DNA of 34,309 nucleotides from a virus (IMGVR_UViG_2872152978_000008); one strand, 5' to 3'. Positions 2,392-31,689 are shown, counted from the first letter of the stretch. Numbers and translations are program-made. The notes: a model not told the origin generated them from the sequence alone.

Positions 2392-2577
2392 TTGACCATG
2401 TTTGATTACCAAGTTTCCAAACATCCATATTTTGATGAAGCCTGTCGTGCATTTGCACTGCGCCACAATCTGGTGCAACTGGCAGAACGTGCAGGCATGA
2501 ATGTGCAGATTCTGCGGAACAAGCTGAACCCAGCTCAGCCTCATTTATTAACCGCACCAGAAATCTGGCTGCTTTGA
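2392..2577 (+). pseudogene. cII: CII-like regulator truncated after ~60 aa by IS911
   Basis: [59 protein letters not shown] resembles the N-terminus of 186 CII (~169 aa, recalled). Its TGA stop is the first three bases of the IS911 left inverted repeat. Confidence 0.65.
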
Positions 2578-2646
2578 AGTGGCACACTGAATTTGGCCAC
2601 CTGAACAGAGGTGATATGCTCACCTCAGAACAACACAGGTGCTCCA

Positions 2647-3815
<1,169 letters not shown>

Positions 3816-3857
3816 CCACTTCACGCCAGAGTTTTATTTGAGATCGCAAACAGGGAG

Positions 3858-5984: not shown

Positions 5985-6055
5985 GTAAGCGTACAGCCTG
6001 AACCGTCTGGTCAGAATCTGACGAATTAGACAAAGTGGTGTCCACCAAATAAGTA

Positions 6056-6457
6056 GTGGGAACCAAAGTGTCAGATATGCAGAAAAATGTGAATCCCGGC
6101 AGGCGAAAAGGCTGCCCTAATTATCCTCCCGAATTTAAACAGCAGCTCGTTGCTGCCTCCTGTGAACCCGGGATATCCATCTCAAAACTTGCTCTTGAAA
6201 ATGGCATTAACGCCAATCTGTTGTTCAAATGGCGACAACAATGGCGCGAGGGAAAGCTGCTATTACCTTCTTCAGAGAGCCCCCAGCTACTTCCTGTGAC
6301 TCTCGATGCAGCTGCCGAACAGCCAGAATCGCTCGCAGAGGATCCGGAAACCCTCAGTATCAGCTGTGAGGTAACGTTCCGGCACGGGACGCTCCGCTTC
6401 AATGGCAATGTCAGCGAAAAGCTCCTGACTCTGCTGATACAGGAACTGAAGCGATGA
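6056..6457 (+). CDS. IS66-family accessory protein TnpA (orf1)
   Basis: First of three co-oriented ORFs inside the IS; true start may be the internal Met at ~6077. Confidence 0.7.
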   Translation: MGTKVSDMQKNVNPGRRKGCPNYPPEFKQQLVAASCEPGISISKLALENGINANLLFKWRQQWREGKLLLPSSESPQLLPVTLDAAAEQPESLAEDPETLSISCEVTFRHGTLRFNGNVSEKLLTLLIQELKR

Positions 6458-6801
6458 TCCCGTTACCTTCCGGGACCAAAATTTGGCTGGTTGCCGGTAT
6501 CACCGATATGAGAAATGGCTTCAACGGCCTGGCGGCAAAGGTGCAGACGACGCTGAAAGACGATCCGATGTCAGGTCACGTTTTTATCTTCCGTGGGCGT
6601 AATGGCAGTCAGGTAAAGCTCCTCTGGTCTACCGGCGATGGACTGTGTCTGCTGACCAAACGGCTGGAGCGCGGCCGCTTCGCCTGGCCGTCAGCCCGGG
6701 ATGGCAAAGTGTTCCTCACACCGGCACAGCTGGCGATGCTCCTTGAAGGTATCGACTGGCGGCAGCCTAAAAGACTGCTTACGTCCCTGACTATGTTGTA
6801 A
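6454..6801 (+). CDS. IS66-family TnpB (orf2)
   Basis: 115-aa ORF overlapping orf1 stop by 4 nt (ATGA), typical IS66 tnpB arrangement. Confidence 0.75.
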   Translation: MIPLPSGTKIWLVAGITDMRNGFNGLAAKVQTTLKDDPMSGHVFIFRGRNGSQVKLLWSTGDGLCLLTKRLERGRFAWPSARDGKVFLTPAQLAMLLEGIDWRQPKRLLTSLTML

Positions 6802-6849
6802 GCCTCTTTATCCTGGTCGACGCTGAATGAGCCTGGTAATATACCCGGT

Positions 6850-8387
6850 ATGAGCAGCTCACTTCCTGACGATATCAATGCACTGAAACGTCTCCTTGCC
6901 GAACAGGAGGCGCTGAACCGTGCCCTGCTGGAAAAGCTGAACGAGCGTGAACGCGAAATAGACCATCTGCAGGCACAGCTGGATAAGCTGCGCCGGATGA
7001 ACTTCGGCAGCCGCTCCGAAAAAGTCTCCGTCGTATCGCACAGATGGAAGCTGACCTGAAGGCACTTCAGAAAGAAAGTGATACCCTTACCGGTCGGGTT
7101 GACGACCCGGCCGTGCAGCGCCCGCTGCGTCAAACCCGCACCCGCAAACCGTTCCCCGAATCACTCCCCCGCGATGAAAAACGGCTGCTGCCGGCAGCGT
7201 CATGCTGCCCGGAATGTGGAGGCTCACTGAGCTATCCGGGTGAGGATGCCGCCGAACAGCTGGAGTTGATGCGCAGCGTCTTCCGGGTTATCCGGACTGT
7301 ACGTGAAAAGCATGCCTGTACTCAGTGCGATGCCATCGTGCAGGCCCCCGCGCCTTCACGGCCCATCGAGCGGGGTATCGCAGGACCGGGGCTGCTGGCC
7401 CGCGTGCTGATCTCAAAGTATGCAGAGCACACCCCGCTGTACCGCCAGTCTGAAATGTACGGCCGCCAGGGCGTGGAGCTGAGTCGTTCACTGCTGTCGG
7501 GCTGGGTGGATGCATGCTGCCGGCTACTGTCACCGCTGGAAGAAGCGCTTCAGGATTATGTGCTGACTGACGGTAAGCTCCATGCTGATGACACGCCTGT
7601 CCCGGTGCTGTTGCCAGGCAATAAGAAAACGAAGACCGGGCGGTTATGGACCTACGTTCGTGACGACCGTAACGCCGGGTCAACGCTGGCGCCGGCGGTG
7701 TGGTTCGCTTACAGCCCGGACAGAAAAGGCATCCATCTGCAGACCCATCTTGCGGGGTTCAGTGGTGTACTGCAGGCGGATGCATACGCCGGGTTCAACG
7801 AGCTGTACCGGGATGGCCGGATAACGGAAGCCGCCTGTTGGGCTCACGCCCGCCGTAAAATCCACGATGTGCACGTTCGCACCCCGTCAGCCCTGACGGA
7901 GGAAGCGCTGAAACGGATCGGCGAACTGTACGCCATCGAGGCAGAGATAAGGGGAATGACGGCGGAGCAGCGCCTTGCCGAACGTCAGTTGAAAACGAAA
8001 CCGCTGCTGAAATCCCTGGAAAGCTGGCTGCGTGAAAAGATGAAAACCCTGTCGCGACACTCAGAACTGGCGAAAGCGTTCGCATACGCCCTGAACCAGT
8101 GGCCGGCGCTGACGTACTATGCAGATGATGGCTGGGCTGAGGCGGACAATAATATCGCTGAAAATGCGTTGCGGATGGTCAGTCTGGGCCGCAAAAACTA
8201 CCTGTTCTTCGGTTCGGATCATGGAGGAGAGCGGGGAGCGCTGCTGTACAGCCTGATCGGGACGTGCAAACTGAACGGAGTGGAGCCAGAAAGCTACCTC
8301 CGCTATGTACTTGACGTCATAGCCGACTGGCCGATAAACCGGGTCGGCGAACTGCTCCCCTGGCGCGTAGCACTGCCGACTGAATAA
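6850..8387 (+). pseudogene. IS66-family transposase TnpC carrying a frameshift near 7027-7035
   Basis: ORF 6850-7059 (MSSSLPDDINALKRLLAEQE...) and ORF 7044-8387 overlap in different frames. Adding one base in GTCTCCGTCGT restores a continuous reading ...[18 protein letters not shown].... Confidence 0.75.
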
Positions 8388-8424
8388 CACATCCCCGTCA
8401 ATACGGTTCTTGCTGCACGCTTAC

Positions 8425-10068: not shown

Positions 10069-10167
10069 CGTAGATCATGCAGGTGCATGAAAACCACTAC
10101 ATAAAGCGGGCAGGTAATGCTGCCAACTTACTGATTTAGTGTATGATGGTGATTTTAAGGTGCTTGC

Positions 10168-10443
10168 GTGGCTTCCATTTCCATCAGATGTCCTTCCTGC
10201 TCCGCTACTGAAGGCGTGGTGCGTAACGGCAAAAGCACTGCCGGACATCAGCGCTATCTCTGCTCTCATTGCCGTAAAACATGGCAACTACAGTTCACTT
10301 ACACCGCCTCTCAGCCCGGTACGCACCAGAAAATCATTGATATGGCCATGAATGGCGTCGGATGTCGCGCCAGTGCACGCATTATGGGCGTTGGCCTCAA
10401 CACGGTTTTACGTCACTTAAAAAACTCAGGCCGCAGTCGGTAA
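10168..10443 (+). CDS. insA: IS1 InsA
   Basis: [42 protein letters not shown]... is the canonical IS1 InsA. Confidence 0.9.
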
Positions 10444-10865
10444 CCTCGCGCATACAACCGGGCAGTGATGTGATTGTCTGCGCTGAAATGGACGAACAGT
10501 GGGGCTACGTCGGTGCTAAATCACGTCAGCGCTGGCTGTTTTACGCGTATGACAGGATACGGAGGACGGTTGTGGCGCACGTCTTCGGTGAACGCACTCT
10601 GACCACACTGGAGCGTCTTCTGAGCCTGCTGTCGGCCTTTGAGGTCGTGGTATGGATGACGGATGGCTGGCCGCTGTATGAATCACGCCTGAAGGGAAAG
10701 CTGCACGTTATCAGCAAGCGTTACACTCAGCGCATTGAGCGACATAATCTGAATCTGAGACAACATCTGGCAAGGCTGGGACGGAAGTCACTGTCGTTCT
10801 CAAAATCGGTGGAGCTGCATGACAAGGTCATCGGGCATTATCTGAACATAAAACACTATCAGTAA
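10362..10865 (+). CDS. insB: IS1 InsB (expressed as InsAB' by -1 frameshift)
   Basis: -1 frame relative to insA; canonical IS1 InsB sequence. Confidence 0.85.
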
Positions 10866-10889
10866 GTTGGAGTCATTACCAGCGGGCAG

Positions 10890-10910
10890 GCGTGGCGGGG
10901 ATACGATTGC
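10890..10910. other. cos-like motif GGCGTGGCGGGGATACGATTG
   Basis: First 13 nt identical to the 186 cohesive-end sequence as I recall it (GGCGTGGCGGGGAAAGCAT). It sits immediately right of the IS1 target duplication, where GC-rich phage DNA changes to the AT-rich cassette. From memory, not verified. Confidence 0.3.
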
Positions 10911-10976
10911 GCGCTAGGTATAAGTGTGTAAAATAATTCCAAAATAAATCATCACCAATGAAGTGAGAGGGTAATA

Positions 10977-12626
10977 ATGTTAGTCAAGAAAAATAAAAAT
11001 TATAGTTTATATTTTTTAATTACAAATAATCAACAGATATCTGATTCTGGTAATTATATAAAAATAGTCCCATCAAGAAGCGATTGGAATGATTTTGGAT
11101 ATTTGAGTAGAGTCGAAATATCTATTTTTAATAAAAAAGAGTGTAAGGATATAATTTCACTGAATGGTTATATTGGTTTTTTGAATTCAGAGGAGGAACG
11201 AAATGGAAAAGCAGAACTGATAAGGCGAGTGAAAAAAAAGGAAGAATCTAATTTAAAGGATGAGGGGTTTAATGATTATTTTGTCATGCTTCAGGATATG
11301 AATAATTATCGAAGACTAGTAAGATTTTTTGGGGTGAATGAATCCAAATATATATTAAATTTCATTAATGATGTTGTTTCTAAGAAAAGTGACGCTAGTG
11401 CAGAGAATTTGAGGAAAAAAGCAATCTCTTCTGATATCTTTAATAAATCTTTCATTAGAGAGTCTGAGTCGTATTTTACTTTCAAAAATGCAGGAACAGT
11501 TCTTTCCGGTATTCAATATGAGGAGTTGGGTAATTTATCACAGCACATCAAGATTAGCTATTCGAATAAAGTTAATGAAGAAGATGTATCTTATGTTTTT
11601 AATTTTGATCACGAGCATGATTTACCAAAAAGAATTTCCATAATTATAGGCGAGAATGGTGTAGGAAAAAGCCAAACGCTTAGAGAAATCGCATTGGCTG
11701 CGATTAAAGGAAAGGATAATTTGGTGGCTGTAGTTGATTCTAACGGTGTGAGCATTGAAGAACGAATTCAAATTAGTAGGCTCATTGCTTTTTCTCCAAC
11801 AAATGAAAGTAAGTGTTCATTTCCAACCGATAAAAGAATAAAATCATTGATATGGTACAAAAGATTGACTTTAAATCGTGAATCAAAATCCAAATTAAAC
11901 TTGAATGATTTAATAGTGCAACTAGCGAGGAGTAACGACGCTATCGGCTATAATCAAAGGTGGAATATATTTGTTGATGCACTGAGTGTTCTAAATAGTA
12001 ACAACGATTTAGTAATCAAATGTGGCGGTGAAAATTCACCATTTGTTAAATTAAATGAGCTTAATTCTCGAGGCGAAGAATCTAGACTATCATTATATTC
12101 TGAAATTATTCTCTCTGGCGAGCCTTTGAGGCTTATTGAAAATAAATGTTACCCTTTGAGTAGTGGGGAAATATCGTTTATTAAGTTTTGTGTACAAGTC
12201 TGTTTGTATATTGAGAATGGGACTCTTCTATTAATAGATGAGCCAGAAACACATCTCCATCCTTCATTTATTAATAAATTTATGGCATTGCTTGATAATT
12301 TATTAGAAAAGACAGGCTCTTCAGCTATCATAGCAACGCATTCGGTTTATCTTGTTCGGGAGGTTTTTAAGGAGCAAGTGACAATACTCAGAAGACGAGA
12401 TGATGGGGTAATTGTTAGCGAAAAACCGAGATTGAGTACTTTTGGGGCGAATATAGGAAATATCTCATATTTTGTTTTCGGTGAGAGTGAACCAACTCAA
12501 ATTTTAAATAAAGTAAAAAACAATATAATTGCAAAGAATATGTCTTGGGATGATGTTGAATCTAAATATAGCGAGGACTTATCACTTAATGTATTAACTG
12601 CGTTGAGAAATGAAATGGGCAATTGA
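10977..12626 (+). CDS. ABC/AAA15-type ATPase with ~220-aa N-terminal extension (PtuA-like defence ATPase candidate)
   Basis: Walker A GENGVGKSQ (~aa 226), ABC signature-like LSSGE, Walker B LLLIDEPETHLHP, H-loop ATHS. GAGAGGG SD before ATG. Very AT-rich relative to the flanking prophage. Confidence 0.75.
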   Translation: MLVKKNKNYSLYFLITNNQQISDSGNYIKIVPSRSDWNDFGYLSRVEISIFNKKECKDIISLNGYIGFLNSEEERNGKAELIRRVKKKEESNLKDEGFNDYFVMLQDMNNYRRLVRFFGVNESKYILNFINDVVSKKSDASAENLRKKAISSDIFNKSFIRESESYFTFKNAGTVLSGIQYEELGNLSQHIKISYSNKVNEEDVSYVFNFDHEHDLPKRISIIIGENGVGKSQTLREIALAAIKGKDNLVAVVDSNGVSIEERIQISRLIAFSPTNESKCSFPTDKRIKSLIWYKRLTLNRESKSKLNLNDLIVQLARSNDAIGYNQRWNIFVDALSVLNSNNDLVIKCGGENSPFVKLNELNSRGEESRLSLYSEIILSGEPLRLIENKCYPLSSGEISFIKFCVQVCLYIENGTLLLIDEPETHLHPSFINKFMALLDNLLEKTGSSAIIATHSVYLVREVFKEQVTILRRRDDGVIVSEKPRLSTFGANIGNISYFVFGESEPTQILNKVKNNIIAKNMSWDDVESKYSEDLSLNVLTALRNEMGN

Positions 12627-13491
12627 AATGAATAAATTAAAAAGACCTGTTTTTAAAGATTATTCTGCATTTAAAAAACTATCTGCAAATAAGAGATTAA
12701 AACATCATTCTGTTCTGAATGGACAGGATACATTTATACTTAATGCATATAGATCGTACATAAAGAATAAAGGGTATCTTAATGTCAATTCTTGTGGCGT
12801 ATTGAGTAACAATATTGCTGAAGCTTTGAGATATTATTATAACAATCCCGCAAAGTGTTTATCTATAATTGATGATATAAGAGCAGCTAATTCTAACTCT
12901 CTATGTCCAATGTGTGGTTCAATGCATAGCGGGACTTTGGATCATGTTTTACCCAAGGAAAACTATCCAGAATTTTCTTTATTCACTAAGAATTTGGTTC
13001 CTGCTTGCAAATGTAATACTTTCAAAAGTACTACTATAGCTAATTCTGCAGGCCATCGGATGCTGCATCCATATTTTGATAATATATTAAAACAAAGATT
13101 AATATGTGCTAATTTTTCTAAATTAGGGCGAACACCTACAATTGATGTAAAAATCATAATTGACCCAATGTCACCAGAATATAACAATGTTAAGTATCAT
13201 CTTGATAATGTTGTTATCAAGAATAATATTAAGGGGTATTTGTCTGAACAATGGGAGTCGTTTTACTTATATCCTGAGCTTGTTATTAGAGGACTGAATA
13301 AGAGTCTTTCTACTTATAGCGATGTATATGAGTTGTTGACTCGCGAGTTGTTGCTGTTGGATGAAAAACATAAAGGTAAAAATAATTGGAATTCGGTTTT
13401 TGTAGCTGGGTTAATTCGACCTGATGTGATTAGGTGGATACTCTGTGAATTACATTTAGGTAACAGAAGTCCAGACGGTCGTCTCATATGA
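12610..13491 (+). CDS. HNH endonuclease (PtuB-like defence nuclease candidate)
   Basis: CPMCGSMHSGTLDHVLPKENYPEFSLFTKNLVPACKCNTFK carries the CxxC...DH...N...CxCN HNH/zinc-finger signature. Start overlaps the ATPase stop by 17 nt (alternative ATG at 12628), suggesting translational coupling. Confidence 0.75.
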   Translation: MKWAIEMNKLKRPVFKDYSAFKKLSANKRLKHHSVLNGQDTFILNAYRSYIKNKGYLNVNSCGVLSNNIAEALRYYYNNPAKCLSIIDDIRAANSNSLCPMCGSMHSGTLDHVLPKENYPEFSLFTKNLVPACKCNTFKSTTIANSAGHRMLHPYFDNILKQRLICANFSKLGRTPTIDVKIIIDPMSPEYNNVKYHLDNVVIKNNIKGYLSEQWESFYLYPELVIRGLNKSLSTYSDVYELLTRELLLLDEKHKGKNNWNSVFVAGLIRPDVIRWILCELHLGNRSPDGRLI

Positions 13492-13501
13492 TTTTTTGCA
13501 T

Positions 13502-13527
13502 CTTCAGCGTGTATCTGCACGCTGAAG
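13502..13527. repeat. Perfect 10-bp inverted repeat (CTTCAGCGTG-TATCTG-CACGCTGAAG) downstream of the HNH gene
   Basis: Stem-loop 11 nt after the HNH stop; no canonical U-tract on either strand, so terminator function is uncertain. Confidence 0.5.
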
Positions 13528-13647
13528 AAATTCATAAAAACTGCTGCCTATTAATAAATTTTTTTAGCTGAGTTAAAGAACCTCATTTAGTGATTACGTT
13601 AAGTAGCTAGTTTATAACTATCAAATTTAACAATGTTCTCACTTACC

Positions 13648-14628
13648 AATTTATTTCCATCATTCTTTTTTGTAACGGTATTAACTCGTTACGTACAAAC
13701 ACCAGGCTCGCCTTCTCCACATCCCCAAACCCCCGACATTATTAGGCATAATCCCCATCATTTGCGGTGGCACACGATGCGCCGCCATCATGTCATCCCG
13801 GCTCACGTTCTTGATGTTCAGAAACTCATCCTTCGCCGCGACTTCTGACAACGGGATGATCTGAAGCCCGTCCTTTTTGCCGTTAGGCGAGTACATAAAC
13901 AGATTGCGGAAGTTACCTGGTCCTTTGGCGCTTTTCATCGCATTGCGGAGGTTGTTCACATCCTCCTGGTTTTGCGCGGCATCGGTCATGTACATGATGA
14001 AGCCTGCATGACTGCCGTTAATGTAATACTATCGGCGGAACAGCGTGGCGGACTCGTTGAGCAGGGCTGACGGAATGGCAGAAAGGTAACCTGGCAGGCC
14101 GTAGATCTCTTGGTTGATGTCCGGTTCCATCAGATGAAAGATGCTTCCTTTCGTGAACTGATACGGCTGCGTGGTCATGCCGTATTGCACAAACCAGTAG
14201 GTATCCAGGTCTAATCCGCGTCGGGTGTATTTTGCCAGAGCAGGCTCAAGAGCGATGACCTCTCCGAACCGGTTTGTGCGTTTCTCCAGGTAAGCGTTAC
14301 CAAATACCAGATAATCCTGCACAAAACGTGAAAAAGCCTGCTGGCTGAGCAGCGGGTGAGGGATGTAGGTACTGATCAGAATGTTGCATTTCACCGCAAT
14401 TGGTGAACTGTGATGCACGGCGGCGCGGAAGGTGCGCGCCAGTCCGTCAAAACTCACTGGCGGCTCATACCAGCGATCTGTCTGTACGCATTCCACATAG
14501 TCCAGTAGTTCACGGCGGTCCAGAACCGGAACGGGATCGCCGAAGCTGAATGCTTCGGCTGAAGTCTGGTTTTTATGCTGGGTCTGTTTCGTCGCCGCAG
14601 CGCGGTTCTTCTTACTCTTTCCCATCAA
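13648..14628 (-). pseudogene. Q: Portal protein gpQ with in-frame TAG (14029-14031) and a probable 1-bp deletion near 13727-13729
   Basis: ORFs 14029-14628 and 13681-13995 share a frame: ...ATLFRR*YYINGSHAGFIMYMTD.... Downstream the frame decays to GGLGMWRRRAWCLYVTS*, while adding one T restores a protein-like GGFGDVEKASLVFVRNELIPLQ... continuation to ~13648. Confidence 0.8.
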
Positions 14629-21884: not shown

Positions 21885-22278
21885 ATTGCAGAAGGTGGAC
21901 GACTGGCTGAGTGCATTATTGGCGAATCTGGAGCCAGCCGCAAGAAGCCGCATGATGCGCCAGCTGGCGCAGGAACTGCGCCGGACACAGCAGCAGAACA
22001 TCAGGATGCAGCGCAATCCAGATGGCAGCAGTTATGAGCCGCGCAGGGTAACAGCACGCAGCAAAAAGGGGCGCATCAAACGTCAGATGTTTACAAAGCT
22101 GCGCACCACAAAATACCTGAAAACTGCAGCCAGCGCCGATTCTGCCAGCGTACAGTTTGAAGGTAGGGTGCAGCGCATTGCCCGTATTCACCATTACGGC
22201 TTGAGTGATCGCGTCAGTCGAAAAGGTATTTATACCATCTATGCGAAAAGGCAGTTATTAGGTTTTAATGTCCGGTAA
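21877..22278 (+). pseudogene. S: Tail completion protein gpS, 3'-truncated by IS1
   Basis: ORF runs into the IS1 left end and stops on a TAA inside the IS1 terminus (...RQLLGFNVR*). Confidence 0.7.
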
Positions 22279-22328
22279 TGCTGCCAACTTACTGATTTAG
22301 TGTATGATGGTGATTTTAAGGTGCTTGC

Positions 22329-22604
22329 GTGGCTTCCATTTCCATCAGATGTCCTTCCTGCTCCGCTACTGAAGGCGTGGTGCGTAACGGCAAAAGCACT
22401 GCCGGACATCAGCGCTATCTCTGCTCTCATTGCCGTAAAACATGGCAACTACAGTTCACTTACACCGCCTCTCAGCCCGGTACGCACCAGAAAATCATTG
22501 ATATGGCCATGAATGGCGTCGGATGTCGCGCCAGTGCACGCATTATGGGCGTTGGCCTCAACACGGTTTTACGTCACTTAAAAAACTCAGGCCGCAGTCG
22601 GTAA
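22329..22604 (+). CDS. insA: IS1 InsA (copy 2)
   Basis: Identical translation to copy 1 InsA. Confidence 0.9.
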
Positions 22605-23026
22605 CCTCGCGCATACAACCGGGCAGTGATGTGATTGTCTGCGCTGAAATGGACGAACAGTGGGGCTACGTCGGTGCTAAATCACGTCAGCGCTGGCTGT
22701 TTTACGCGTATGACAGGATACGGAGGACGGTTGTGGCGCACGTCTTCGGTGAACGCACTCTGGCCACACTGGAGCGTCTTCTGAGCCTGCTGTCGGCCTT
22801 TGAGGTCGTGGTATGGATGACGGATGGCTGGCCGCTGTATGAATCACGCCTGAAGGGAAAGCTGCACGTTATCAGCAAGCGTTACACTCAGCGCATTGAG
22901 CGACATAATCTGAATCTGAGACAACATCTGGCAAGGCTGGGACGGAAGTCACTGTCGTTCTCAAAATCGGTGGAGCTGCATGACAAGGTCATCGGGCATT
23001 ATCTGAACATAAAACACTATCAGTAA
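22523..23026 (+). CDS. insB: IS1 InsB (copy 2)
   Basis: As copy 1, with a T-to-A substitution (TLTTLERL to TLATLERL). Confidence 0.85.
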
Positions 23027-23036
23027 GTTGGCAGCA

Positions 23037-23519
23037 TTACCATGCAGCCCTCACAATATAGTTAAAAGCGACATTTCGTGGGCGTGTTTCATTCGCACCT
23101 GCAGGTTTAGTCGTTGCCGCAACAACACCACCCTCTGTAATAGCCGGGTTGGGAATTGGGTAATTATCGAAGTCAATGGCCGGAGACAGGGGCGTGATTT
23201 GTTTTAAAATCGTGGTGCCTGTAAAACTTTCCAGAGTCTGGTCGTTAGTTCGTGAAGTCCAGATTCCCCAATAGTGGTTATGACTGACAATCGCACCGTC
23301 CTGAAGCGTTAATAATCCCCTTCCGTTATCCACTCCACGTCCGTCATCCCAGCCACGAATAAACTCACCGCGTAAATCAGGCAATTTATTTGTCGGGTAA
23401 GCCTTTGCCAGTTCCGGGTATTCTTCAGCAGAAAAAGCCGCACCATTGCATTTCAGCCAGCCTGTCGGCGGAGTGGCTGAAGGCCACGGAACAGGCACAC
23501 CAACAGGTAATGCAGAGCC
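23037..23519 (-). pseudogene. Orphan tail-fibre variable C-terminal segment, clipped by IS1
   Basis: ...GWLKCNGAAFSAEEYPELAKAYP...NVAFNYIVRAAW is a typical tail-fibre C-terminal variable domain. It has no constant N-terminal part, lies inverted next to an invertase, and its 3' end runs into IS1. Confidence 0.6.
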
Positions 23520-23545
23520 TTCTCCCAAACCAACGTTTAAGAAAA
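23520..23545. other. Candidate 26-bp invertase crossover site (gix/cix/pix-like) TTCTCCCAAACCAACGTTTAAGAAAA
   Basis: Imperfect dyad resembling recalled Hin/Gin/Cin recombination sites, located at the 5' end of the inverted fibre segment and 55 bp upstream of the invertase gene. Confidence 0.45.
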
Positions 23546-31454: not shown

Positions 31455-31534
31455 CGCTGCCGCCATTTTGTCGCCATCGTTAAAAAACAGTGCTTCTAAC
31501 ATCATGATTTTAAAAGGCATAAATTTCAGACAAC

Positions 31535-31577
31535 AAAAAACCCATCAACCTTGAACCGAAATGGCGGGGTTGATGGG
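31535..31577 (-). terminator. Candidate rho-independent terminator downstream of ybjL
   Basis: Perfect 10-bp stem CCCATCAACC/GGTTGATGGG with a 17-nt loop, followed on the minus strand by U6. Confidence 0.45.
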
Positions 31578-31689
31578 CTCCACAAAATGGGGACATCAAA
31601 GAAAAGCAGTGGCACTAATTAAGACTGATGCCCTGCGGAAAAGTTCTGCGGTTGTGCAAAAAAATTTCATTTTCAGGGCAACTTCAGTT

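Follow-up and report, generated by a model that had tools for sequence, protein, structure and literature searches.

A candidate anti-phage ATPase-HNH cassette of divergent Septu type in the cos-proximal cargo slot of a decayed P2-like prophage

The window analyzed here, the whole stretch of 34,309 nt, contains a decayed P2-like prophage of Shigella dysenteriae. Between the cos site and the portal gene, Q, of the prophage lie two genes that we consider a probable anti-phage module, a Septu-type (PDC-M01) pair carried as non-essential cargo in the hotspot between gpA and gpQ, whose mode of action would most likely be superinfection exclusion or abortive infection. The first gene encodes an ABC-type ATPase whose catalytic motifs are all intact, and the second encodes a beta-beta-alpha-Me (HNH) nuclease with intact zinc and catalytic motifs. 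The cassette reveals neither a new class of system nor a new hotspot.

The host prophage is dead, having acquired four IS elements, a portal pseudogene, and a baseplate deletion, and the cassette within it is intact. The cassette is AT-rich foreign cargo of a P2-family prophage: the GC content is 0.318 at positions 10915 to 13650, a block of ~2.7 kb, versus 0.529 across the remainder of the window. When the region was compared with other P2-like phages, homology broke off at 10914 and restarted at 13649 to 13662. Composition and homology breaks agree on an AT-rich cargo between cos and the portal gene of a P2-family prophage, as the original prediction had it, and the interval that it had given (10915 to 13690) is, by these homology edges, essentially the variable cargo module itself (10915 to 13650, + strand), which has cos on one side and the 3′ end of Q on the other. 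According to the ORF listing, the module contains the ATPase and HNH genes alone. In the intact E. coli copy and in the copies from IMG/VR, the gene order is gpA, a hypothetical gene, DinI, cos, the ATPase gene, the HNH gene, and Q. Of 5426 complete E. coli genomes, only 3 have the module, and a megablast search of a phage collection (50,697 records) did not return the cassette. Different cargo occupies the identical cos-to-Q slot in other P2-like phages, and in P2 itself the cos-Q interval is only ~170 nt.

The left border of the slot is a P2-like cos site (10889 to 10914, + strand), made up of a 19-nt cohesive end, GGCGTGGCGGGGATACGAT, at 10889 to 10907, followed by the right flank TGCGCGC. 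In an alignment with the annotated cosL and cosR of P2, the cohesive end is identical at 14 of 19 positions and the flanks AAGCGGGC and TGCGCGCT are conserved, so that what had been called a cos-like site is a real cos. With five mismatches, the site escaped a search for the P2 cos that allowed up to three, which gave no match, and it was recognized on visual inspection and from the alignment. The 26-mer at 10889 to 10914 is shared unchanged by all six E. coli/Shigella copies, in each of which it precedes the ATPase start codon by 61 nt.

The original prediction had also held that the cassette occupies a nonclassical position, and this claim was not supported. The P2 defense hotspot is the cos-proximal region bounded by gpA and gpQ, old and tin included, and the ATPase (WP_112048222) is already present in Table S5A for that hotspot (Rousset et al. 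2022, PMC9122126). The cassette was found just there, as variable cargo that adjoins cos and is flanked by gpA and gpQ in a P2-like prophage. That it does not sit at the tin/old position is true in a narrow sense, since P2 old and tin are on the gpA side of cos and the cassette is on the Q side, but the hotspot is the same. Its location in a published defense hotspot, together with the other cargo that other phages have in the slot, speaks for the anti-phage reading.

The ATPase gene (10977 to 12626, + strand) encodes a PtuA-like protein of 549 aa, of the PDC-M01A family, and the HNH gene (12628 to 13491, + strand) encodes a PtuB-like protein of 287 aa, of the PDC-M01B family. The HNH ORF as listed extends from 12610 to 13491 (+ strand), but because all 25 aligned homologs begin with MNK, we place the true start codon at the ATG at 12628. 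As a consequence, the TGA stop codon of the ATPase gene (12624 to 12626) is separated from the HNH start codon by a single nucleotide (TGA-A-ATG, 12624 to 12630, + strand). This spacing fits a termination-reinitiation mechanism and suggests that the two genes are translationally coupled, in keeping with the original prediction. In homologous pairs at other loci, the ATPase and HNH genes overlap by 4 to 8 nt. Both ORFs are real: at the base composition concerned, 549 codons would stay free of stop codons by chance with a probability of ~6e-22, and 287 codons with a probability of ~8e-12, and homologs of each protein number in the hundreds.

The motifs named in the original prediction were all located. 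In the ATPase, we found the Walker A motif GENGVGKS (aa 225 to 232, 11649 to 11672), the signature LSSGE (aa 394 to 398, 12156 to 12170), and the Walker B motif LLLIDEPE (aa 417 to 424, 12225 to 12248), together with the H-loop ATHS (aa 453 to 456, 12333 to 12344). The HNH protein carries CPMC (aa 93 to 96, 12904 to 12915), DH (aa 105 and 106, 12940 to 12945), and, within the sequence NLVPACKCN (12991 to 13017), both N122 and CKCN (aa 127 to 130); these are followed by H147, by LHPYFD (13063 to 13080), and by a conserved C-terminal NNWNS motif (13381 to 13395). The catalytic and zinc motifs are invariant in alignments of 22 ATPase and 25 HNH homologs. In overall architecture, the ABC head of the ATPase comes after a conserved N-terminal domain specific to the family (aa 1 to ~210), and the second protein combines a beta-beta-alpha-Me (HNH) core with a conserved C-terminal helical domain. 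Neither the N-terminal 210 aa of the ATPase nor the C-terminal 141 aa of the HNH protein gave a Pfam match at E values of up to 1, and the ATPase N-terminal domain was seen only in PDC-M01A models. As judged from these profile searches, both domains are without known relatives.

Among the PADLOC models, the best match for the ATPase was PDC-M01A (3e-55, aa 27 to 539 of 549) and that for the HNH protein was PDC-M01B (1e-33, aa 2 to 264 of 287), and the two matching genes are adjacent. All 25 HNH homologs match every PDC-M01B model among the best 25 matches listed. The ATPase also matches the PADLOC PtuA model over its full length (1e-31), and its top Pfam match is AAA_21, described as “putative AbiEii toxin, type IV TA system”; it is an ABC-type (AAA_15/AAA_21) ATPase with intact motifs that is recognizable as PtuA. 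When its profile was compared with the PDB, it retrieved only generic ABC heads (UvrA and EF3) and, at ~8e-4, AriA and the ATPase of retron Ec83.

The link between the HNH protein and PtuB depended on the use of a PtuB family alignment rather than a single sequence. When the HNH family was compared by hhalign with an alignment of canonical TIGR02646-type PtuB proteins, which itself matches PtuB chains of known structure (1.6e-16 to 2e-7), the probability was 96.5% (E value, 8e-10) over just 88 columns around the HNH core, whereas comparison with a single canonical PtuB sequence gave a probability of only 20.9%. Searches of the PDB with the HNH protein by phmmer, by hmmsearch with a 25-sequence profile, or by Foldseek returned no PtuB, and the sequence searches yielded noise (Spo0B and S100-A9) and a weak HNH match (4h9d; E value, 0.19). 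In a fold comparison, the best structural matches for the ATPase and the HNH protein were PtuA and PtuB, respectively, although the margin of PtuA-type chains over generic SMC/ABC heads was only about 1 Z unit. We therefore regard the second protein as a beta-beta-alpha-Me (HNH) nuclease homologous to PtuB.

The original prediction of a Septu-like pair thus stood with one amendment. Profile searches, fold comparison, and gene adjacency all spoke for it, and in the searches with PADLOC, Pfam, and NCBIfam, no non-defense family claimed either protein; the best matches, however, are to PDC-M01 and not to canonical PtuA and PtuB. These comparisons support the reading of the locus as a Septu-like defense cassette, as a divergent subtype marked by the ~210-aa N-terminal domain of the ATPase and by the CxC zinc knuckle and NNWNS tail of the HNH protein.

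Septu (structures 8EE4 and 8EE7), as reportedly described by Doron et al. in 2018, consists of a PtuA ATPase and a PtuB HNH nuclease. The cassette resembles it in being a two-gene operon in which an ABC-type ATPase gene lies upstream of an HNH nuclease gene with no other conserved partner, and both are found in mobile or defense-island contexts. The differences lie within the proteins. The Walker A lysine, K43 in Septu EcB88 (PMC13096335), is K231 in the cassette ATPase, where it follows the N-terminal domain. The solved PtuB chains are 215 to 266 aa long, shorter than the cassette HNH protein, and the second zinc knuckle is CxxC in canonical PtuB but CxC, invariantly (25 of 25), in the cassette family. 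Also unlike Septu, the HNH protein has the conserved NNWNS motif and matched no Pfam or NCBIfam model, the HNH and TIGR02646 models included. The cassette shows no structural difference from PADLOC PDC-M01 (Payne et al.), which is its own family. PDC-M01 is an unpublished computational candidate without a published phenotype, and its calls overlap Septu calls on the same genes (PMC11811056). Likewise, a P4-hotspot protein labeled Septu by Rousset et al. (PMC9122126) matched PDC-M01B at 2.6e-37.

Two other groups of systems were considered and rejected. Unlike the PtuAB of type I-A retrons (Retron-Eco7/Ec78 and Ec83), the cargo is not accompanied by a reverse transcriptase gene, and a search of the cargo with Rfam found no retron ncRNA or other RNA family. 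The ATPase scored 41 bits against the NCBIfam PtuA model of retron Ec78 (NF041760), for which the cutoff is 500, and retron-specific PtuA elements are not expected in it. OLD, Gabija, and PARIS have as their hallmark a Toprim nuclease domain or a characteristic partner (GajB helicase or AriB). Old is, like the cassette, an ABC-type ATPase-nuclease, but it is a single ATPase-Toprim protein with no HNH partner. That the pair belongs not to Septu but to one of these or another ABC-ATPase nuclease family (AbiL or restriction-associated AAA) is very improbable: matches to OLD/Gabija/PARIS-type families are confined to the shared ABC head, neither protein contains Toprim, UvrD, or DUF4435, the full-length ATPase matches are to PDC-M01A and PtuA, and the HNH partner is nearest to PtuB by both structure and profile.

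The genomic contexts of the pair bear on two further explanations. The ATPase gene is directly upstream of, and co-oriented with, the HNH gene in all 12 related loci (35 to 100% identity), and the flanking genes vary among all of the contexts examined; the pair travels jointly between prophages and genomic islands. Its neighbors, which also speak for defense, include in Stenotrophomonas AbiJ/Abi_C, Peptidase_U49, and SduA_C, in a prophage-like region of Pseudomonas an RVT_1 gene, and, elsewhere, an ABC-3C system. In HK97-like cos phages, a small HNH protein encoded beside the terminase is conserved within the lineage and needed for cos cleavage, and the HNH gene described here also lies between cos and the portal/terminase genes. 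A role as a DNA-packaging accessory of the terminase is nevertheless so improbable that we rejected it. The gene is part of a foreign AT-rich cargo that is sporadic in E. coli genomes and was absent from the phage records; relatives with the same cos and terminase hold other genes in the slot, and P2, with its short cos-Q interval, holds none. Moreover, the protein is large (287 aa), has a PtuB-like fold, and is constantly paired with the ATPase, non-phage contexts included.

The second explanation is that the cassette is a selfish module for addiction or inter-element competition, in which the ATPase would hold a toxic HNH protein in check, in the manner of a toxin-antitoxin pair, and which would serve to stabilize the cos-linked cargo or to exclude rival P2 or P4 elements rather than unrelated phages. 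The AbiEii toxin description of its top Pfam match, its intactness in an otherwise decaying prophage, and the constant 61-nt spacing between it and cos among enterobacterial copies would all suit such a role, and hotspot cargo is able to act against P2 relatives (Rousset et al. 2022, PMC9122126). On the other hand, many homologous pairs reside in chromosomal islands not associated with any cos, and no antitoxin-type features were seen in the cassette. We consider this explanation unlikely, and it is compatible with defense, because abortive-infection systems are formally toxin-antitoxin-like.

For the anti-phage reading, a mechanism can be proposed by analogy with Septu and retron PtuAB (PMC12819146, PMC13096335). 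In canonical Septu, a PtuA oligomer binds PtuB and the nuclease is restrained by ATP (PMC12819146). By analogy, the cassette ATPase would oligomerize and keep the HNH subunit in an inactive complex, with the nuclease gated by ATP binding or hydrolysis. A phage cue, perhaps read by the family-specific N-terminal domain of the ATPase, or a fall in ATP induced by infection might then release or activate the nuclease, which would nick DNA and/or cause tRNA cleavage, arresting the infected cell and blocking phage yield. Because the ATPase N-terminal and HNH C-terminal domains are without known relatives, the sensing and regulatory steps of this scheme are pure analogy. We think it rather doubtful that PDC-M01 is a mechanistically distinct ATPase-HNH system, with an N-terminal phage sensor, a different HNH substrate or docking mode, and a unit fused to cos and Q. 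Such a unit, traveling in enterobacterial P2-like phages fused to cos and the last Q codons, would form the far left end of the genome as packaged. If the cassette is active, it would provide the first experimental handle on a widespread Septu-related candidate subfamily (the HNH profile matches ~3,900 clusters built at 50% identity), and the ATPase N-terminal domain may reveal how infection is sensed by ABC-ATPase/HNH systems.

The right border of the slot is formed by portal gene Q (13599 to 14628, − strand), the last ~17 codons of which fall within cargo-specific sequence. Q is a pseudogene; in comparison with the intact E. coli copy, it has gained a stop codon by a nonsense change at 14031 and has lost 4 nt at 13648 and 1 nt at 13729, and it is broken in the ORF listing into ORFs at 13681 to 13995 and 14029 to 14628. 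Between the HNH gene and Q, starting 11 nt past the HNH stop codon, is a hairpin with a 10-bp stem (CTTCAGCGTG/CACGCTGAAG, 13502 to 13527); neither strand shows a U-tract, the hairpin was not called in the terminator scan, and its role as a terminator is putative. Terminator-like sites (4 versus 2.3 ± 1.7 in shuffled controls) and promoter-like sites (17 versus 13.7 ± 3.7) were not clearly above the controls.

Upstream of the cassette, outside the system, lies an IS1 element (10113 to 10881, + strand) with an 8-bp target duplication, AGCGGGCA. The element is inserted 96 nt ahead of the ATPase start codon, with the cos cleavage site 8 nt to its right, and is missing from the E. coli copy of the locus; the prophage of E. 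coli UPEC-245U is an intact, IS-free relative. The position of IS1 raises the possibility that, in the S. dysenteriae copy, the cassette is a silent remnant that is intact by chance and functionless, its promoter cut off by IS1 and/or its AT-rich DNA silenced. In line with this idea, the interval from IS1 to the ATPase ATG yielded no promoter-like site in a promoter scan, and the rest of the prophage is decaying. There are only five substitutions between the cassette and its E. coli copy, too few to show purifying selection on it. Against silence, both cassette ORFs are complete, with one amino acid change in the ATPase and none in the HNH protein, whereas the adjacent 1-kb Q has suffered three inactivating lesions, and the ATPase gene keeps a good ribosome-binding site (GAGAGGG). 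We consider a silent remnant less likely than not, and it would bear on activity in one strain and not on the identity of the module. The locus offers a clean case of putative defense cargo outliving its prophage in the IS-riddled genome of S. dysenteriae. A second copy of IS1, 99.6% identical, lies at 22274 to 23042.

The cassette is real. Its ATPase gene occupies nucleotides 10977 to 12626 of the plus strand and encodes 549 amino acids. The adjoining HNH gene was called as an open reading frame at 12610 to 13491 on the same strand, but we place its start at the ATG at 12628 because all 25 aligned homologues have MNK(L/I) at the N terminus; this gives a product of 287 amino acids, with the ATG following the ATPase TGA stop codon (12624 to 12626) after a gap of 1 nt. 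Every motif quoted in the original prediction was found, and both frames are open. In the ATPase we located Walker A GENGVGKS (residues 225 to 232), the signature LSSGE (394 to 398), Walker B LLLIDEPE (417 to 424) and an H-loop, ATHS (453 to 456), and in the HNH protein CPMC (93 to 96), DH (105 and 106), N122, CKCN (127 to 130) and H147. None of these residues varies in the alignments, which comprise 22 and 25 homologues, and both predicted catalytic centres are conserved and undamaged. The pair lies, as had been noted, in a sharply AT-rich block, with a GC content of 0.318 in 10915 to 13650 and 0.529 in the remainder of the window; at the composition of the block, the probability that a frame stays open by chance is ~6e-22 for 549 codons and ~8e-12 for 287 codons. 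Directly 3′ of the HNH stop codon is a hairpin (13502 to 13527) with a perfect 10-bp stem and without a U-tract on either strand.

The window is a P2-like prophage of Shigella dysenteriae, and an identical HNH protein carries that species name. Of 5426 complete E. coli genomes, only 3 carried the cassette, at 99.3 to 99.5% identity, and none was found in deposited phage genomes. In the intact prophage of E. coli UPEC-245U, our reference for comparisons, the gene order is int, cI, ..., DNA adenine methylase, gpA, hypothetical, DinI-like, the ATPase and HNH genes, portal Q and terminase P, with capsid, lysis and tail genes downstream. Alignment to the annotated ends of phage P2 located the cos site at 10889 to 10907 (GGCGTGGCGGGGATACGAT); 14 of its 19 positions are identical to P2 cos and there is conservation on either side (AAGCGGGC and TGCGCGCT), and by this alignment the site is a genuine cos. 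Homology to other P2-like phages ends at 10914 and restarts at 13649 to 13662, within the final codons of Q. The cargo module therefore spans about 10915 to 13650, nearly exactly the interval first proposed (10915 to 13690), and, as predicted, has cos on one side and the portal gene on the other. Since its right recombination border is inside Q, the module provides the final ~17 codons of that gene.

The proposal that this is not a classical cargo position holds to the extent that P2 old and tin sit across cos. The slot is not new, as Rousset et al. (2022; PMC9122126) described a P2 hotspot in the cos-proximal region from gpA to gpQ, old and tin included. In phage vB_EcoM-813R9, the same cos-to-Q slot is filled by a different gene, the product of which has a Hypoth_Ymh domain, and an IMG/VR relative, L016, carries the cassette plus additional cargo on the gpA side of cos. 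Both sides of cos are therefore cargo slots in this lineage. The extra 2.6 kb in L016 (1658 to 4262) lies between DinI and cos and contains two open reading frames (288 and 217 amino acids), neither of which had a Pfam match.

Profile searches with PADLOC supported the reading of the pair as Septu-like. The best full-length matches were to the candidate family PDC-M01 (PDC-M01A for the ATPase, 3e-55; PDC-M01B for the HNH protein, 1e-33), and the ATPase had a further full-length match, to a PtuA model (1e-31). PDC-M01 is a computational candidate that has not been published, and its calls reportedly fall on the same genes as Septu calls (PMC11811056). The P4-hotspot “Septu” protein of Rousset et al. 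is itself a PDC-M01B protein (2.6e-37), with 33% identity to the window protein in the HNH core. In Pfam the ATPase matched AAA_21 and AAA_15 alone, and the HNH protein had no match in Pfam or NCBIfam and no link to PtuB in a direct PDB sequence search or with Foldseek. More sensitive remote searches connect it to PtuB: with hhalign, the HNH family alignment matched a canonical TIGR02646-type PtuB alignment over 88 columns across the HNH core (probability 96.5%, E 8e-10), and that PtuB alignment in turn matched PtuB chains of solved structure (1.6e-16 to 2e-7). Both proteins have their own PHROGs, with function unassigned there. The family is already catalogued as a candidate, the hotspot is published and the exact ATPase gene is in a published supplementary table (Table S5A of Rousset et al.). 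The chief value of the cassette would be as a test case for the candidate PDC-M01 branch and its uncharacterised N-terminal domain.

That domain sets the ATPase apart from canonical Septu. A conserved region of ~210 amino acids precedes Walker A, so that the Walker A lysine is K231, whereas it is K43 in Septu EcB88 (PMC13096335). Scanned by itself, the region had no Pfam match and was recognised solely by PDC-M01A models. The HNH protein, for its part, is longer than solved PtuB chains. In all 25 sequences, CxC takes the place of the canonical Septu CxxC at the second zinc knuckle, and the helical domain at the C terminus, which is recognised by PDC-M01B models alone, contains an NNWNS motif that does not vary.

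The ATPase gene was directly upstream of the HNH gene in all 12 related loci (35 to 100% identity), with varying neighbours. The Stenotrophomonas pair lies in an island with AbiJ/Abi_C, Peptidase_U49 and SduA_C genes, the Serratia pair close to the portal gene of a different P2-like prophage, and the Bradyrhizobium and Providencia pairs at chromosomal sites. A Pseudomonas pair is in a prophage-like region with a reverse transcriptase (RVT_1) gene 1.4 kb downstream and a DUF4917 gene ~3.8 kb downstream, which may be a further defence cluster (L011, 10285 to 13643). The most distant pair found (35% identity; IMG/VR locus L020, 3832 to 9061) adjoins an ABC-3C system comprising an SMC-like ATPase, MComp1 and CTD1. 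Among 1.84 billion proteins searched, the HNH profile matched ~3,900 clusters at 50% identity. The two genes are coupled and inherited together, and they form a mobile cargo module found in settings rich in defence genes.

Taken together, these results indicate that the cassette is probably a Septu-type defence module. By analogy with Septu and retron PtuAB (PMC12819146, PMC13096335), an ATPase oligomer would sequester the HNH subunit with nucleotide state as the gate, the nuclease would be activated by a phage cue or by falling ATP, and DNA nicking, tRNA cleavage or both would arrest the infected cell. The family-specific N-terminal domain may read the phage cue. Our confidence in any single step of this analogy is much lower than in the assignment as a whole. 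It is improbable that the pair serves mainly as an addiction or competition module, a role compatible with defence. We rejected a packaging HNH associated with terminase, as the gene is seldom present, forms part of variable cargo and never occurs without the ATPase, including at sites outside phages. OLD, Gabija and PARIS were also rejected, since a Toprim domain is absent and the partner resembles PtuB. A retron effector was ruled out since the cargo contains no reverse transcriptase gene and no RNA family detected by Rfam; the pair therefore stands alone.

Set against the intact prophage of E. coli, the one in the window is defunct. An IS3-family element (about 2575 to 3820; HTH_Tnp_1 orfA and rve orfB) replaces ~1.8 kb from cII to the methylase gene, with loss of cII, fil, DUF5347, DUF2732, a TraR-like gene and the 5′ part of the methylase gene. 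A 2.4-kb IS66-family element (about 5986 to 8424; HTH_Tnp_1, TnpB_IS66 and DDE_Tnp_IS66 open reading frames) interrupts the replication gene gpA, with 9 bp of E. coli sequence duplicated at the junction. Portal gene Q (13599 to 14628, minus strand) is a pseudogene, with a nonsense mutation at 14031 and two frameshifts, caused by the loss of 4 nt at 13648 and of 1 nt at 13729. A second IS1 (22274 to 23042; 99.6% identical to the copy at cos) is followed by an inverted 495-bp tail-fibre gene fragment. The prophage lacks the greater part of the tail-fibre gene, together with a DUF5677 cargo gene and the baseplate genes V, W, J and I; the rearrangement (22274 to 23536) looks like an IS1-mediated deletion and inversion.

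The IS1 at cos (10113 to 10881; 8-bp target duplication AGCGGGCA) splits the conserved left flank 8 nt left of the cleavage site and has probably abolished packaging. It also ends 96 nt upstream of the ATPase ATG and may have cut off or replaced the cassette promoter, and a promoter search detected none between IS1 and the ATG. It is thus possible, if somewhat doubtful, that the cassette is a silent remnant in this strain. Compared with the E. coli copy, its HNH protein is unchanged and its ATPase differs at a single residue, which is Y125 in the window and N in E. coli. An intact cassette in a decayed prophage is suggestive of selection, with too few substitutions for proof.

At the ogr-side end of the prophage, between it and ybjL, we found the host sRNA gene rybB (Rfam RF00110, 105 bits; 31532 to 31610, minus strand), and the attachment site could thus lie at this gene or close to it.
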